Assembly: GCA_000182565.2 (NCBI GenBank)
Contig: KQ257451.1
Source: Spizellomyces punctatus DAOM BR117
Taxonomy: Eukaryota
Length of the DNA stretch: 64,000 nucleotides
Direction: 5' to 3' (one strand)
The notes under the pieces were generated by a model. It did not search any database and had not been told where the DNA came from. It saw only the letters and a list, made by a program, of their open reading frames with translations. A program made the position numbers and the translations under genes. This document shows positions 16,894 through 64,000 of the stretch, in pieces (the first letter of the stretch is position 1; every line of letters begins with the position of its first letter).

Positions 16894-18636
16894 TTAGAAA
16901 AGCTCCATGCCTTGCTCATGTTGCTCCTTAACAAAGATCTCGAAATACTGGATTCGGAAAGGAAGCATCAATAACAAGTCACAACTCCTATAACAATGGC
17001 AGACGTACCTGGTAAATGATCGTCACAGCCAGCAGAATACCTGTACCTGAACCGATCGCTCCCAAAAGGTCTGCCGATACAGACAGCGCGCCAATACAAA
17101 GACCACCGAAAGCAGCAGCAGTTGGAATGATACGCTTCAGCTCCTTGTACATGGATTGGTCACGGTGACCGCGCATTACTAGCTGCTGCTCCTTCAACTG
17201 TCTTGCAACATCTCTAGGGGAGGAACCGGAAACCTCAATCCATGTTTTCGAGAACAGGGCGCATGCGGAGAGCATAAAGGTCACATAGATCACAAAGTGC
17301 ACCGGATCACTCAAGGCCTTTCCAAGATTCTGCGGCGGAGAGATGTAGTAGGCAAAACCACTGGCAGCGTATTCTTGAGGGACGCCCTCAGGACTCTTCC
17401 AAACGCCGAGAAGGCGGACAAGGAGGTTTTCCGGCCAGCGTTTGTACAATAATTGAGAGATAAAGTAGATGTTCGAAACCAGAGCGGACTGCAACATGAT
17501 GGGCATGTTGGACGTGTAGAAGAGCTTGATGGGGTAGTTACCCTGTTGACCACGGAATCGGTTTGACTTCACCGGGATCTCAACACGGAATCCTTGCAAG
17601 TAAATGACTACTGCAAAGACCAAGAGAGTCGCAGCCAGATTCATCAAGTTGGGGAGATTCTGCCTGTACATGGCCTCTTTCAACGCGCGGAACTTGTCGT
17701 GGCGTGTGAACAAGAGATGAAAAAGCGCAACCACAGCGCCCTCGAACTCAGTTCCTGTGAGACACAAAATGTCAGCGACTTCCTTAATGCAAGAAAATTG
17801 AGATCTTCAGTCACCTCGTCCAGTGTTGTAAGTAGTTGGGCTGAAAGCCTTCCAGACAATGGTCTCGCAGATGTTGGTGGCGATGAAGAGAGAGATACCA
17901 GATCCAAGCCCGTAGCCTTTCTGCAGCAATTCGTCCAACAACATAGTGATCAAGGCCGCGATGCAAAGTTGGAGGATCAACAAAATGGAGATGCCTGCTC
18001 CGATGTCCTTAGGGTCGCCGTAAACGCCTGACCAGACAGACACGGTAGCCTGTCCAACGGCGATCACCATGGCAAACACTACAGCGTATCAGTTAGAAGG
18101 TCTCTGAGCAAGAAATATTTATAGATCGAGGCACTTACGTTTCTGCGCTCCGGAGAAAAGGGCCCGATCTTCTTTCAATGAGTAATCGACCTCAATGATG
18201 TTCGCACCAGCCAACAACTGCATTATCATGCCGGAAGTCACAATCGGTGTGATACCCATCTCCATAAGCGTTCCTCGGTTCGAAGCCATAATCACACGGA
18301 GCCAGTACATTGGGTCGGACGTGTCAGAGGACATGATCCCGAAAAGAGGAATTTGGGAGCACACCAGGAAGATGAAAAGCGTGATAGCGGTCCACATGAC
18401 CTTTTCCCGGAACTGCACCTAGAAAGGACAAGAAGAAGACCGCGAATGTTGGTACATATTAACCTCATCCACATTCTTAGAGCGAGCCGTACCTTGCGGT
18501 CTGGTGCAGCGACCTCGGGCATCAGTGAGATGAACGGCCTCAACGCGTGGAGCAAGCGAACTACAAAAAATCGCTACAGTTAATCTACTGGCTTCTAGCT
18601 TGATATATCCCGCCATAACAATTCCTTACACGACAT
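16894..18636 (-). CDS. SEC61: Sec61 translocon alpha subunit, multi-exon
   Basis: [108 protein letters not shown]; stop at 16894. Confidence 0.96.
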
Positions 18637-18900
18637 GATTCCCAGTATACGAGGATTTCAACAAGGGTATGCTGCAAGATGTTCAGCCTGTTTCGCGCGG
18701 CGACAAGCTGATATCTCCGTCACGTAGTCCAACTAAAATTGGACCCAACCAAATCGTCCACGCAAAAACGTCCGCACTACGCACTTCGTTGGAAATGGCA
18801 GATCGCAGGGATGCACAATTTTGAGACGACTGTGCGGCGTGCAAAGCTGCGGGTTGCTGGTCTGCAGTTGTGGCCCAAAGGAAGGATGTGGAGACGATTC

Positions 18901-18980
18901 ATTGGCTGAAATGAGTCACGTGAAGAAATGCACGTGAAATTGTTGCTATAGCAATTCCACACGCTATGCGCGTATAAAAG
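18901..18980 (+). promoter_or_regulatory. H2A promoter: inverted CCAAT (18901), two CACGTG E-boxes (18917, 18931), X-box-like GTTGCTATAGCAAT (18942-18955), TATA box TATAAAAG (18973)
   Basis: Motifs read directly in the SEC61/H2A divergent intergenic region; function inferred. Confidence 0.6.
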
Positions 18981-19109
18981 GGGGCAGCAGCATTATGTTT
19001 TCCCTTCATCGCGTTATTGTCCAATAAACTGCCTTATCTTCTTCATCTGTCGTACTTATCGACGTGTTCTTTCGTTTGAATCGAACGTATCTTCTTACTC
19101 ACACTTGCA

Positions 19110-19667
19110 ATGGCTGGTTCGTATCGTTGTTCTTTTCATTTTTTTCAGGTGGTGTGTGGTGGACACTCATTACCAGGACACTTTCATCTTTCTTAGGAGG
19201 CAAAGGAAAGGCTGGTGCTGAAAAGGCTCCCAAAGGTGGCAAGTCGCGCTCTTCTCGTGCTGGTCTTCAGTTCCCTGTTGGCCGTATCCACCGTCTTCTC
19301 CGCAAGGGCAACTACGCTCAGCGTGTCGGTGCCGGTAAGACGTTGTTTTGTTCTTGCTCTTATTTCGCAGATTTTTAAGGTCAATGGTATTGTAGGTGCA
19401 CCTGTCTACTTGGCTGCGGTGTTGGAATACCTGGCTGCTGAAATTCTAGAGTTGGCAGGCAATGCCGCTCGCGACAACAAGAAGACGCGTATCATTCCTC
19501 GTCATTTGCAATTGGCCATCCGGAACGATGAGGAGCTTAACCGACTTCTCGGCAATGTGACCATTGCTCAAGGTGGTGTCCTCCCCAACATCCACTCTGT
19601 CCTCTTGCCCAAGAAAACCAAGACTGGAAAGGGCGAAAAGGGAGGCTCTCAGAGCCAGGAATACTAG
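19110..19667 (+). CDS. HTA1: Histone H2A (H2A.X-type tail SQEY), 3 exons (19110-19116, 19197-19334, 19396-19667), 138 aa
   Basis: [79 protein letters not shown]. Confidence 0.97.
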
Positions 19668-19683
19668 GCTGTCGGAAAGCCAA

Positions 19684-19699
19684 GGTGTTTTTGAACACC
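19684..19699 (+). promoter_or_regulatory. Histone 3' UTR stem-loop (6-bp stem, 4-nt loop)
   Basis: CCAA-GGTGTT-TTTG-AACACC-C, 16 nt after the H2A stop; basal G-C pairs, top U-A pair, loop U1 and U3 as in the SLBP-binding consensus. Confidence 0.75.
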
Positions 19700-20040
19700 C
19701 GAGTTTTGTATATATGTAGTATGGGTGCCGCCCAAATATGTCTATAAGGAGCTACGCTATCAGCCATTTGCTTGACCCTCTTTCGGCGTGACGATTTGAA
19801 TGTGTTATGATACTTTTGATGATGCTCTTGAGTATCCTTCTTTCTGCCATCTCAGTCCAGTCCTAATAATCATGACAATCTGCATAAAAGGCCGTATGCT
19901 GGAGCAGTTAAAACAGTTTGAGCAGCCAGATTATGCTGGAATGCATTCACGTGAGCACGGATGTTGCCATGGAAGATACAACTGTGTTCAACTGCCCTCT
20001 CTACCAAATGTCCATCGTATGCGACTGATTCCGCGCAAAC

Positions 20041-52074: not shown

Positions 52075-53304
52075 CTAATTAACCTTTGTCTGAGATTGAA
52101 CATCTTGACCACTACCACCACGTTTACGCAACTGAGCTTCAGCAGCATACCGAATAGCCCACGTCAATTCATACGTCTTGGAAGCATCTTCCCAACTCGA
52201 GAGGATCCCGCCCGTCTTGCCCGTTCCTTCTCCAATATCCTGTTGCTTGCCCAATTTGACAGCATCGACCAGGACGGCCATTTGAGAGAGGTAGGGATCA
52301 TCCTCGGGGAACGTGTACAATTGCTCAGCGTCGTCCAAGGGAGAGCGAACGTAGAGTTTGGGTTCATTGTAAGGATCAACCATGCGGAGGAACCAACCGT
52401 CGGCATGGACTTCGAGTTCGCAATTGTATTTGGTGCCTTGGAGGTTGATGCCGTGGACAATGGTTCCCACGGCGCCCGACGTGTATTTCCAAATGGCGGT
52501 GGTGATGCGAGGCACGCGATCCTGTGGTGGGATGGAGGATTCGTCAATGGGGATGACAGAGAGGTGGCCGGGGGGTTCGTCGTGTTCGACGGAATGGGCT
52601 TGGACCGAGGAAATCTCCACGTCGCCTCCAAAGTAGCGCGACAAGTCACAAAAGTGGGTGCCTTGTTCGACAATGGGAGAACACGAGATGGATTTCATCC
52701 ACCAGTCCTTTTTGGCAATGTGGGCATAGGAACAAGTGTAGCGGGCCATGGTGGACATGACGGTCAGGTTGTTTTCGGCAATCAATTGCTTCATTTTTTG
52801 AACGACTTGGAGGTAGCGCATAAAGTAACCGACCGAGACGAGGTTGCGGGACGCTTCCAAGTGTTTTCCGACGAGCATGACGTCTTGAACGGATGAGCTT
52901 GACATTGGTTTTTCGACAAAGAGCGTCACGTTGGGGATGGCGTTGGCGAGGGCGAGTTCCATGTCCTTGCCGGGGAGCGTGCTCCCGTGAAATGCGGGAG
53001 GGACGCCAATGAGAATCATGTCTGGCTTGTCTGCGGTTCCAGCGGTCATGTCGTGGAGATAGGCGGGGAGCGAGTCGTACTCTTTGGTGTGCTCATAGGA
53101 GGGGCCTGCGGAAGAGAGGCGTTTGAATTCCAAGACTTGCTGACGGCGCGGAGGAGCCGGGTCAATGATTGCAGTGACGACAAGGTTGTTGCCAAGCGTT
53201 TGTTCCAAGCGTGTCGAGTGGTTCCAAGGCCCTTCGACTGTTCCAAAGTTGATTCCCCCTGCACCTACGAATGCCACCTTGAGGGTGCCCACAACCCCAG
53301 GCAT
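52075..53304 (-). CDS. Gfo/Idh/MocA family NAD(P)-dependent oxidoreductase
   Basis: KVAFVGAGGINFG Rossmann motif, FVEKPMS, VGYFMRY, IVEQGTHFCDL; ATG at 53304. Confidence 0.9.
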   Translation of the reverse strand: MPGVVGTLKVAFVGAGGINFGTVEGPWNHSTRLEQTLGNNLVVTAIIDPAPPRRQQVLEFKRLSSAGPSYEHTKEYDSLPAYLHDMTAGTADKPDMILIGVPPAFHGSTLPGKDMELALANAIPNVTLFVEKPMSSSSVQDVMLVGKHLEASRNLVSVGYFMRYLQVVQKMKQLIAENNLTVMSTMARYTCSYAHIAKKDWWMKSISCSPIVEQGTHFCDLSRYFGGDVEISSVQAHSVEHDEPPGHLSVIPIDESSIPPQDRVPRITTAIWKYTSGAVGTIVHGINLQGTKYNCELEVHADGWFLRMVDPYNEPKLYVRSPLDDAEQLYTFPEDDPYLSQMAVLVDAVKLGKQQDIGEGTGKTGGILSSWEDASKTYELTWAIRYAAEAQLRKRGGSGQDVQSQTKVN

Positions 53305-53729
53305 GTCTATTGTCGCGAGCGTTGTGAGAATTGTGATTGTTGGGTGGGTGGCGAACAAGAGAGAGCGTGCAAGAGTCCCCGTGAGTCGTGCGTGAGTCGT
53401 GTGCGTGAGTTGTGTGAAATGTCCCAAACGATGAGCTGTTTAAAAGAAGAGTCTGATAATAAAAAAACAAGGAGAACAAGGGAGAATACTGCGCAATAAA
53501 AATAAAAAAAAGAAGCGTCTGTGTGTGGATAAAGACGAGAGAAATGCAACAAAATAAAAATTGTAGATATACTCAACACATGCATGAGATAAAAACTACA
53601 AATATAAGAGTGTTGAATATGAGTGAGATACAAGAGTGTGAGAGTGTGAACATGCGAGTATGAATAGATGTGTGATATGATAAAAGGAAAGAGATATTGT
53701 GACAATTCCCCCATATGTTGAGTGAATGA

Positions 53730-58830: not shown

Positions 58831-59926
58831 ATGGTACGTTTTTCATTTCCCATTCTCATATCCATTACACTCTAAAAAACTAACCACACCCCAAGGCCCG
58901 AAATGAAGAAAAAGCCCAATCCATGCTCTACCGCTTCCGAGAAGCCCAAGCCGCCGAACTAGGGTTCAAAAAGTCCGAAAAAAGACCCTACCTAGCTTCT
59001 GAAGTACATGTCCTCAAAGACGCTGAAAAATGGCGTCAACAAATCATTCGAGAGATTTCAAAAAAAGTGTCAAAGATTCAGGATTGTATGTTGTGTTTTT
59101 TTCGCTCTATCCATGTTGGCGTATTGGATTTTTTTTATTGATTGATGTATGGGATTTGGATTTTTAGCGGGGTTGACGGATTACCAAGTCCGAGACCTAA
59201 ACGACGAAATCAATAAACTGATTCGAGAGAAACGACATTGGGAGTATCGGATTCGAGAATTGGGTGGACCCGATTACAAAGTCCGTTTATCCACTTCCCT
59301 CAAGACCGTTTGAACGGGTTCACTTATGCTTTTCTTTTGTAGAGAATGGGACCAAAGTTGCTTGATCAGGAAGGAAAAGAAGTTCCTGGGAATAGAGGAT
59401 ACAAGTACGTATATATCAATAACTCGTGTTTGCTACAATGGTTTATTGTTTTAATTGTATCATAAAGGTATTTTGGTCGTGCAAAGGATTTACCGGGTGT
59501 AAGAGAACTCTTTGAACAAGAAGGTATCCATTCTACATTTTATCTTTTCGTAACAATGGCGTTTTCTAATGTCCTTTGTAGTCCCTGAAGCCCCCAAACC
59601 GACCCGACAAGACCTATCCCGACGAGTCGACGCTGATTATTACGGATACAGAGACGAAGAGGATGGGATATTACTTGAATATGAAGCAGAGATATCCAGA
59701 CGGGGTATGTCACAAAAAAACCCCCCGCACCTTACTCATACACTAATTTTTCTTTTTATTAGAACTTGGACAAGTGATGGATACACCACTAACGGATTTC
59801 GTAGCGCATGTTCCCGTCCCATCCCAAAAAGATGTGGAAGCTTGGCTTGTTCGACGACGACAACAGGAATTGGCGGATCGGTTCTTGTCTGATGAACATT
59901 CACTGAGTAAACAAGTCACATCATGA
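58831..59926 (+). CDS. ISY1: Pre-mRNA splicing factor Isy1, multi-exon (first coding exon is ATG only)
   Basis: [94 protein letters not shown]. Confidence 0.94.
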
Positions 59927-61821: not shown

Positions 61822-64000
61822 ATGGCTACTGCCACGACAAGGTGTGTTTACTCGGTACAGCCCACTATTCTGGCGTTTGCTCAACCTTTAACCGCTAGAG
61901 TTTCGGGAGCGGGATACCCAGGCGCCGAAGATGTCTTTGTAGAAATAACGGACCCTCAAACTGGCAAGACATTTTTTGCCAACATTGCGACGGGGGAATG
62001 TTGTTGGGAACGACCGAGACATGCTCGTGTGTGCGTATTTTTGTCGCTTTACCGAGCGTTATGAGATTATGGGGACTTAAGAGGGTGATTTGTGAGATGA
62101 AACGTTGGAACCAGGTCATTAATTCGTAAAATTGTTTTCCTGATCGTTTGCAGGAAGCCAAAGGATGAATCGGGTATCGAGTGGTGGGAACTCTTTGATG
62201 ATCATCACAAGTTGGTATGTGGAACATTTGCGTTTAGGATACGTCATGGTGTGAGGTATCTAAAATGGAAAAAAAACGACAGCCCTATTACTACAATACC
62301 AAGACGGGAGAAACGGAATGGCTTCGACCGACTGTGGGGACAATCATCCCAGTATGTGTCTTGATCGTGTTTATGGAATGGAACATTATGCTTATGTTTT
62401 TTTGAATGTGTGAAACAGCTGACAGCTATACAGGTATGTAGAGTACCCTCGTTCATTTGCATGTCGTAAACGAAATAGAATAATATCTTTGACGATGCAC
62501 TGTCAACAGAACTCTTCCATCGGAAAGCGCGTTTCCGTTCTCGTACAACAAGCTTCCATCGCCAATTCTTTTGCTGGCACGTCCTTGTTGGGTGCTGCAT
62601 CACTGGCTGCCGATAGCCCTATGCGCTACATGTCAAATTCACCGCCCCAGCGATCCATACCCGAGGAAGTAGGTCATCCTCCTGTCCCTTCCCAAAACAC
62701 CTCCTTGCTCATTCTTTCCATGCAGCCTGTATACCCCAGGCCAACAACCCGCTCAGGCTCCCATCCAGATATCAGTACGACCCAGCAATACTCTCCGCTC
62801 GCCTCACCGAATATGAGACAAAGCAACTCGTCAAAGAATTTGTCTCAGTCACCTCCTATATCGGCTAGCGGGAATCGCACATCGCTTACTCAGTCATCTT
62901 CCATGCATAGTCTTCGTGATGCGGCAGCAAGGGCGCGTACCTATGGGATTAGTACACCGGTTTTGAACCCAGGTACGTGCACTCTGTGTTTGTTTCGGTC
63001 GATGAACGTGCGCATTCTGAGCCTTTCTGTGACTATTAGAAGCAGCAGCATCAATGAGTCCATTGAATAGTCCAATAAATGCAAAGATACAATCCAGTCC
63101 CGAGCTACAATCTCCTATCAATGAGTCCGTGATCTTGGTTCATTTGAATCCGCAGTCCGATAGCTAACACTCTCTGTCACAGGGGAAAAGCCCTCCCAAA
63201 AGACTTGAAAGCGCAACTAAGCCAGTTTCGGATAGAAGGATTTGCGACAAAGTACTTTTCAGAACATAGAAAGGGAATATTTTTCCGACGAAGAGTCCCT
63301 GTTGAAAAGATGTTGGTGTACCAAAAGGTTTGTTCCAAATGTAGTATGTGCCATGGTTCCTTATCTAACAAAACATTGCAGGAGCCTCTGAAAGCCCCAT
63401 TAATGGTCTTGAACAAGGACTTGCACAAGGATGCACTAAAATGCTTCAAGCTCATACAAAAAATAATGAAATCCGACCCTGCCGCTGCGGTAACAGATAC
63501 ACATACACTACTGGAAAAAGGGATTGCCCATGGTGGCCTTCGAGATGAGATTTACGTGCAGATCTGCAAGGTATGTTTGTCCCCATCTTTTGTATCCTAT
63601 TTTACAAAGGTCCTTGACCAACTTTTGATATCAGCAATTGAAAAACAATCCCGATGGGTAGGTGTGTGCATTTTCGAGTCTAGGCGGATAACCCCGCTCC
63701 AAGGCACCTCTAACCAACCGAGTGAACGCAGAGAAAGCGTATACAGAGGCTGGATACTCATCTCAGTAGTCACCATCGCCTTTCCTCCTTCCAAAAACTT
63801 TGAAGATTACCTCAAAAACTTTGTTCAACAGCATCAAGGAAGCACGGCTGGAAAAGTCGCCATGGTCGTGCAACACTGTTGGAAAAAGCTGTTAAGAATC
63901 TGTAAAACGGGGCCACGCGGGAAAACCCCCACCACGGCCGAAATCCAACGGGCTCAGGTTCAGTGTTTTATGAAACTCCAATTTGTGTTTCGCTAATTCC
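61822..64000 (+). CDS. ARHGAP39/Vilse-like WW-WW-MyTH4(-RhoGAP) protein, multi-exon, truncated by window end
   Basis: FVEITDPQTGKTFFANIATGECCWERP, EWWELFDD..YYYNTKTGETEWLRP..IIP; MyTH4 LRDEIYVQICK..RGWILISVVTIAFPPSKNFEDYL. RhoGAP domain inferred, not in window. Confidence 0.82.

Follow-up and report, generated by a model that had tools for sequence, protein, structure and literature searches.

Fungi were long thought to have lost the SLBP/stem-loop system of histone mRNAs entirely. This view was overturned by a recent preprint (Zhao, Bond and Ni Leathlobhair, bioRxiv 10.64898/2026.10.14.759114, 16 Oct 2026), which reports that orthologues of SLBP have persisted, together with stem-loop motifs, in Cryptomycota, Blastocladiomycota, and Chytridiomycota. 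According to this preprint, a stem-loop and a poly(A) tail occur together at many loci, a state termed 'SLBP-SL-PAS'. In the H2A mRNA of Allomyces macrogynus, the stem-loop is followed by AATATA and poly(A), and in the H4 transcripts of Catenaria the poly(A) tail comes directly after the stem-loop, without a poly(A) signal. The fungi are described there as largely devoid of U7 factors, with no recognisable U7 system, and the Chytridiomycota as heterogeneous, with stem-loops eroded locus by locus at many loci. Candidate hairpins were accepted by a permissive criterion (6-bp stem with one mismatch, at most 300 nt from the stop codon); the fungal candidates averaged 5.8/16 identity to the metazoan reference, and stem-loop-like hairpins were also found in fungi without SLBP. 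For Spizellomyces punctatus, the same source gives an SLBP coding sequence, which is co-expressed with the histone genes in the multinucleate stage (Zhao et al., 2026). A preprint on Cryptococcus Rmt5 states that C. neoformans has no SLBP. A full-text literature search returned no further paper tying chytrids or other fungi to a retained SLBP/stem-loop system.

Among animal genes, mammalian H2AX is of particular relevance, because it encodes an SQEY-tail protein from a gene in which a poly(A) site lies downstream of a histone stem-loop, and gives rise to two mRNA forms, one ending at the stem-loop and a longer, polyadenylated one. It is intronless and has a U7-binding element, and its stem-loop is the true 3' end in S phase. 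The locus described here encodes an H2A.X-type histone and lies in a stretch of 64 kb from a Spizellomyces chytrid, the whole of which is referred to as the window. Its features are as follows (window coordinates):

19110 to 19667, plus strand: H2A.X-type histone gene with exons 19110-19116, 19197-19334, and 19396-19667; product of 138 aa
19668 to 19766, plus strand: 3'UTR of 99 nt, from read depth and poly(A) reads
19680 to 19700, plus strand: histone stem-loop-like element, CCAA-GGTGTT-TTTG-AACACC-C, read from the sequence
19684 to 19689 with 19694 to 19699, plus strand: stem GGUGUU/AACACC of this element, enclosing the loop UUUG (19690-19693) and followed by C
19709 to 19714, plus strand: TATATA, candidate UA-rich efficiency element, placed by motif position
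19734 to 19739, plus strand: AAATAT, candidate A-rich positioning element, located 27-32 nt upstream of the poly(A) site
19766, plus strand: cleavage/poly(A) site, last templated base (..CAGCCA); 26 reads with A16 behind it, agreement 1
19638 to 19801, plus strand: read depth in RNA run X12, 696 over 19638-19678, 327 over 19679-19719, 254 over 19720-19760, and 34 over 19761-19801

The identity of the gene is clear from its product. Pfam Histone_H2A_C and Histone were both matched on the ORF 19197-19664, and the spliced protein ends in GGSQSQEY, thus in an SQEY tail. It matches the 'histone H2A.X' of S. punctatus DAOM BR117 (P0123) at 134/138 residues (given also as 99%), and a second, non-SQEY H2A of S. 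punctatus at 122/138. Both introns have GT..AG ends; intron 2 is spanned by five RNA reads, and intron 1 is based on a dip in read depth together with the protein alignment. The intron-containing H2A gene of the original prediction, made from the DNA letters, is therefore confirmed by reads joined across intron 2. No second histone gene was found in the window, either by a short-motif screen of 794 ORFs of at least 45 aa or by Pfam, which was run on 150 of the 164 ORFs of at least 100 aa, the longest ones, ORFs below 100 aa being covered by the short histone motifs only. The H2A.X gene is thus solitary in the window, lacking a divergently oriented H2B partner. The region 18900-19110 in front of it differs from the head-to-head H2A-H2B pairs that are usual in fungi according to PMC13525598. 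There is a TATAAAA box near 18975; the neighbouring gene upstream, on the same strand, apparently ends near 18462.

The window's best named protein matches were to Spizellomyces, Gaertneriomyces, Phlyctochytrium, and Powellomyces, that is, to Spizellomycetales chytrids, in agreement with the early-diverging fungus that had been proposed as the host. An oxidoreductase ORF (52078-53439, minus strand) is 96% identical to its counterpart in Spizellomyces sp. 'palustris', 61% to that of S. punctatus, 60% to Gaertneriomyces, and 57% to Phlyctochytrium. The ORF 63148-63993 on the plus strand, which runs to the end of the window, contains a MyTH4 domain (Pfam E=1.4e-24), a domain that is, to our knowledge, not common in Dikarya.

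The hairpin follows the H2A.X stop codon (TAG, 19665-19667) closely. It had been placed, together with its CCAA flank, 16 nt past the stop; this distance is correct for the start of the stem, whereas the flank begins 12 nt on. All structural features listed in the original prediction are present in the sequence. The stem consists of six Watson-Crick pairs and carries a 4-nt loop. Its positions 1 and 2 are G-C pairs (GG 19684-19685 with CC 19698-19699), the loop UUUG has U at positions 1 and 3, and the U-A pair U19689-A19694 closes the loop. A U at loop position 1 and a U-A closing pair are criteria of stem-loops bound by SLBP. A G-C pair at stem position 2 and a U at loop position 3 are, according to Zhao et al. 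(2026), the marks that are kept across eukaryotes for SLBP binding. The hairpin therefore carries the features of a histone stem-loop. The flanks deviate: in the 5' flank GCCAA two A's abut the stem, as compared with three in the Rfam consensus (ccAAA), and on the 3' side the ACC(C)A flank is absent, with CGAGUU in its place. The stem also starts closer to the stop codon, at 16 nt, than the 25-60 nt that Zhao et al. (2026) give for metazoan stem-loops.

In secondary-structure predictions, the hairpin was kept in the minimum-free-energy fold of a 63-nt stretch and, when the complete 3'UTR of 99 nt was folded, in the minimum-free-energy and centroid structures alike. The folding z-scores were without significance (+0.88 for the 63-nt stretch and -0.88 for the 3'UTR), as is expected for so small a hairpin (16 nt), and folding energies thus cannot discriminate here. 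A further palindrome, GGCTCT-C-AGAGCC, is found at 19644-19656 within the last H2A.X codons, in the G-S-Q-S-Q stretch. Its arms equal the metazoan consensus histone stem, but its loop is a single nucleotide; it was matched on the minus strand with 12.5 bits by R1, a covariance model described below, and is probably a coincidence of codons.

The position of the mRNA 3' end could be read from the RNA data. Run X12, which bears the same species label, contributed 2461 reads as 60-nt records at the locus, nearly all of them first mates on the plus strand, and its coverage was strongly 3'-biased, as in an oligo-dT-like library. Twenty-six reads carry a non-templated A16 behind position 19766, 67 nt past the stem. 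Since the genome reads TTTGCTTG there and contains no A-run, the tail is a real poly(A) tail. RNA contigs from three further runs cross the hairpin with zero differences and end at 19731, 19744, and 19733. The detected transcripts thus run through the hairpin and do not end there, as seen in a poly(A)-primed library that is blind to ends without poly(A), from which a minor poly(A)-less species would escape and from which the function of the hairpin is not readable. Among the best-supported loose ends, behind which stand 219 weaker ones, none was an A-run near the hairpin.

Neither AATAAA nor ATTAAA occurs in 19668-19800. The TATATA and AAATAT motifs presumably take the roles of efficiency and positioning elements, which we assigned from yeast and fungal poly(A) signals. 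By inspection, 19701-19766 contains no purine-rich downstream element of the U7 type, in line with the original prediction, which had seen no clear one. Its fallback, a polyadenylated mRNA, is likewise borne out by the 26 tailed reads, the action of the hairpin aside. At the gathering threshold, the 64-kb window gave no match to U7, and Pfam found neither an SLBP domain nor LSM10 or LSM11 among the 150 longest of its 164 ORFs of at least 100 aa. Two of the three runs that yielded contigs (X1 and X2) are root metatranscriptomes, and their contigs are identical to the 3' part of the H2A.X mRNA. This identity indicates that the host species of the H2A.X gene, or a very close strain, was transcriptionally active in the root sample.

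The locus is closest to the early-diverging fungal loci that combine a stem-loop with poly(A), such as Allomyces H2A. As described by Zhao et al. (2026), they share with the Spizellomyces locus a hairpin of 6 bp and 4 nt shortly past the stop codon of a fungal histone gene, a stem with G-C at position 2, a loop with U at position 3, the lack of a U7 element, a variant A/U-rich signal with poly(A) downstream, and a host from a lineage that has SLBP, here a chytrid of a genus for which SLBP is reported. The differences are that the species is another one, that the Spizellomyces gene is of the H2A.X type and spliced, and that its hairpin matches the Rfam Histone3 consensus at 9/16 positions by our count, in contrast to the average of 5.8/16 for the fungal candidates of Zhao et al. 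(2026). With a stem-loop past the histone stop and a poly(A) tail further downstream, the H2A.X locus joins a class that Zhao et al. (2026) have already described, and it opens no new category.

The metazoan system represented by Rfam Histone3 (RF00032) has in common with the locus the lengths of stem and loop, the GG/CC base, the U-A top pair, the UUUN loop, the presence of A in the 5' flank, and a site just past the histone stop. However, the inner pairs are UGU/ACA in Spizellomyces and CUC/GAG in metazoans, neither an ACCCA flank nor a purine-rich downstream element is present, and the gene has two introns. Moreover, metazoan mRNAs are cut 4-5 nt past the stem, whereas the Spizellomyces mRNA is polyadenylated 67 nt downstream of it. 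Compared with mammalian H2AX and its two mRNA forms, only the poly(A) form was seen here. Histone3 was the top-scoring of 4227 families on the 61-nt stretch 19662-19722, with 10.7 bits against a threshold of 34 and E=2.3, which, divided by 4227, comes to about 5e-4 for Histone3 by itself on these 61 nt. It was not among the matches at E<=10 in a scan of 401 nt, and nothing in the whole window attained an Rfam gathering score. The label 'metazoan-type', which the original prediction had attached to the element, therefore goes too far: the Histone3 score is 10.7 against 34 bits, the ACCCA flank is absent, and the transcripts pass the hairpin to reach a poly(A) site.

To judge the element against non-metazoan stem-loops, we used a metagenome scan with H2A exon 3, which yielded 80 loci from many eukaryotes, 79 of them with an in-frame stop. 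The taxon labels of these loci are rough, because the protein set used was biased towards chytrids, and no DNA of a close relative of the window was seen among the 80 loci. A strict GG..CC hairpin with a 6-bp stem and a 4-nt loop was present within 100 nt past the stop in 43/79 loci (36 distinct 28-mers). The exact arms GGTGTT-NNNN-AACACC occurred in six loci (L032, L042, L045, L060, L063, and L065), and a relaxed scan of 24 loci added two with the same arms and a 5-nt loop (L019 and L067). As judged by sequence comparison, the arms of the Spizellomyces hairpin are thus identical to those in eight environmental H2A loci that appear unrelated to it. None of the seven Dikarya-like loci with an SQEL tail (L014, L022, L026, L027, L028, L035, and L062) had a strict hairpin, in line with what is known of Dikarya, which lack the element.

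The six loci with the exact arms share with Spizellomyces the GGUGUU/AACACC stem and a U-rich 4-nt loop and belong with the protist and algal stem-loops, such as those of Chlamydomonas and Volvox named in PMC13525598. They differ in having an ACC/ACA 3' flank, a CAAC-type 5' flank, and a distance of 25-94 nt from the stop; Spizellomyces has neither flank. An ACCA/ACCCA 3' flank is present in most of the environmental stem-loops. In an Rfam control with 12 loci, metazoan-like stem-loops scored 35.2-39 bits, and the GGUGUU-type stem-loops of L045, L032, L065, L060, and L042 scored 19.6-29.7 bits for Histone3, which gave no match in L063, L019, L067, L004, and L023 (for L004, none at E<=10). A score below the threshold is therefore normal for non-metazoan stem-loops, as these controls also fall below 34. 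That the Spizellomyces element is the weakest of the GGUGUU type is explained by the missing ACC(C)A 3' flank and the loss of most of the A-rich 5' flank.

Several observations from this set stand apart. L032 was rejected as a chytrid relative, being an intronless divergent H2A-H4 pair with an unusual H4. A GGUGUU-type stem-loop follows each gene of this pair (L032:42-87 on the minus strand and L032:1117-1163 on the plus strand), with sub-threshold Histone3 scores of 24.2 and 27.9 bits. Marine H2A loci that resemble those of green algae and encode SQEY tails formed a further group (L004, L005, L008, L009, L011, L013, L017, L018, L020, and L078), and the L004 group has the variant GGTGAA-TATC-TTCACC with an AACCA 3' flank, 50-68 nt past the stop. 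Pair counts on the alignment A1 were discarded as evidence because they are circular, the rows having been chosen for pairing.

From these data, we consider that the hairpin, which lies inside a polyadenylated H2A.X 3'UTR, probably goes back to the ancient histone stem-loop by genuine descent. [quoted passage not shown] The conjectural part of this reading is the binding by SLBP, together with whatever regulatory effect it may have. For the survival of an SLBP system, which the original prediction had proposed, the support comes from Zhao et al. (2026).

The alternative that fares best against it is a decaying relic, that is, an ancestral stem-loop that SLBP no longer uses, in a gene whose 3' end depends fully on polyadenylation, and which persists by inertia or in a minor structural role. 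The lost 3' flank, the lacking purine-rich element downstream, the lowest Rfam score among the GGUGUU-type stem-loops, and the polyadenylated H2A.X mRNA would all be in keeping with such a relic, and so would the locus-wise erosion in chytrid genomes and the hairpins of SLBP-less lineages described by Zhao et al. (2026). However, a neutral element of 16 nt would be expected to decay, and the Spizellomyces species are far apart, as the only 61% identity of the metabolic enzyme at 52078-53439 to S. punctatus indicates; yet 6/6 pairs are still Watson-Crick, and every position that Zhao et al. (2026) name for SLBP recognition is intact. SLBP is, moreover, retained and expressed in S. punctatus according to the same source. 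A relic is thus an unlikely explanation, although it has more in its favour than those that follow.

Another possibility is that the mRNA has two 3' ends, as in mammalian H2AX, some transcripts stopping just past the hairpin with no or a short poly(A) tail and the rest reaching 19766, so that the hairpin would still be a processing signal. The read depth does halve over the hairpin, from 696 (19638-19678) to 327 (19679-19719), but such a drop is usual for a 3'-tag library near a poly(A) site. Poly(A)-less ends would indeed escape a library that is apparently 3'-biased and dependent on A-tails, and the Catenaria H4 transcripts, in which poly(A) directly follows the stem-loop, offer a precedent (Zhao et al., 2026). 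On the other hand, the best-supported loose ends (219 lesser ones lie beyond them) include no A-run near 19700-19705, and the contigs of the three other runs extend 32-45 nt past the hairpin. The locus also has neither an ACCCA flank nor a U7-type element, and Zhao et al. (2026) recognise no fungal U7 system. We therefore regard two 3' ends as improbable.

The remaining explanation concerns the specificity of the hairpin itself. Perfect hairpins of 6 bp and 4 nt that start with GG were observed twice per strand in the window, as compared with 0.93 expected. When a U-A pair at the top of the stem and U at loop positions 1 and 3 are added to give the full motif, the expectation per 64-kb strand falls to 0.060, and the one occurrence observed is the H2A.X hairpin on the sense strand. 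The expectation was derived from 300 first-order Markov simulations, and as the motif was set after the site had been seen, the p-value is indicative only. We also searched the window (128 kb on both strands) with the covariance model R1, built from 36 environmental stem-loop sequences with the window left out and run with filters off. At E<=10 it returned 21 matches, among which the H2A.X hairpin ranked second (14.0 bits, E=0.27). The top match, 59260-59290 on the minus strand (15.2 bits, E=0.13), adjoins no histone gene and is likely due to chance; its stem, of the GGACUU/GGGUCC type, encloses a loop of 7 nt and is flanked by AUAAAC on the 5' side and by ACCCAA on the 3' side. By score alone, the hairpin is thus not significant window-wide, and it draws its weight from its location. 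An origin by chance, or as a palindrome that acts at the DNA level and has no part in histone mRNA control (for example, as the site of a dimeric factor within the 340 nt that precede the next gene), would be compatible with the chance-like rate of GG-start hairpins, the better R1 score at a non-histone site, the unremarkable folding z-scores, and the post hoc motif statistics. It is improbable, however, when the full motif is expected only 9.4e-5 times per 100 nt and yet lies on the sense strand directly past the one histone gene that the screens detected, its arms recurring after H2A in eight unrelated environmental loci and no such hairpin occurring in any of the seven Dikarya-like SQEL loci.

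Returning to the retained stem-loop inside a polyadenylated 3'UTR, we propose the following mechanism. An ancestral eukaryotic histone stem-loop would have been retained in the H2A.X 3'UTR of a Spizellomyces chytrid. The detected transcripts continue past the hairpin and are polyadenylated 67 nt downstream, presumably directed by UA-rich and A-rich signals of the fungal type, and the mRNA 3' end would no longer be set by the stem-loop. The hairpin would then be an internal binding site for the predicted interaction with the chytrid SLBP orthologue, and the bound SLBP may couple the stability or translation of the mRNA to the replication of nuclei in the growing fungus, for which the U7 snRNP would not be needed. 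The stronger version, that the stem-loop is a working SLBP site in a spliced, polyadenylated H2A.X mRNA, acting without U7 and without defining the 3' end, is put forward tentatively as a real but less than even prospect; a minor class of transcripts may end at the stem-loop.

The H2A.X locus is an unusually clean example of its class, combining a near-perfect stem-loop, a spliced gene, and read-level proof of a downstream poly(A) tail. It offers a concrete RNA for studying the role of the histone stem-loop once 3'-end formation by it has been lost. If the hairpin is a working SLBP site, the locus would represent a living intermediate, its mRNA stability or translation being under the control of SLBP without U7 or 3'-end definition. 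Because Spizellomyces has been reported to be transformable, an ancestral, U7-independent role of SLBP would then be directly testable in this genus.
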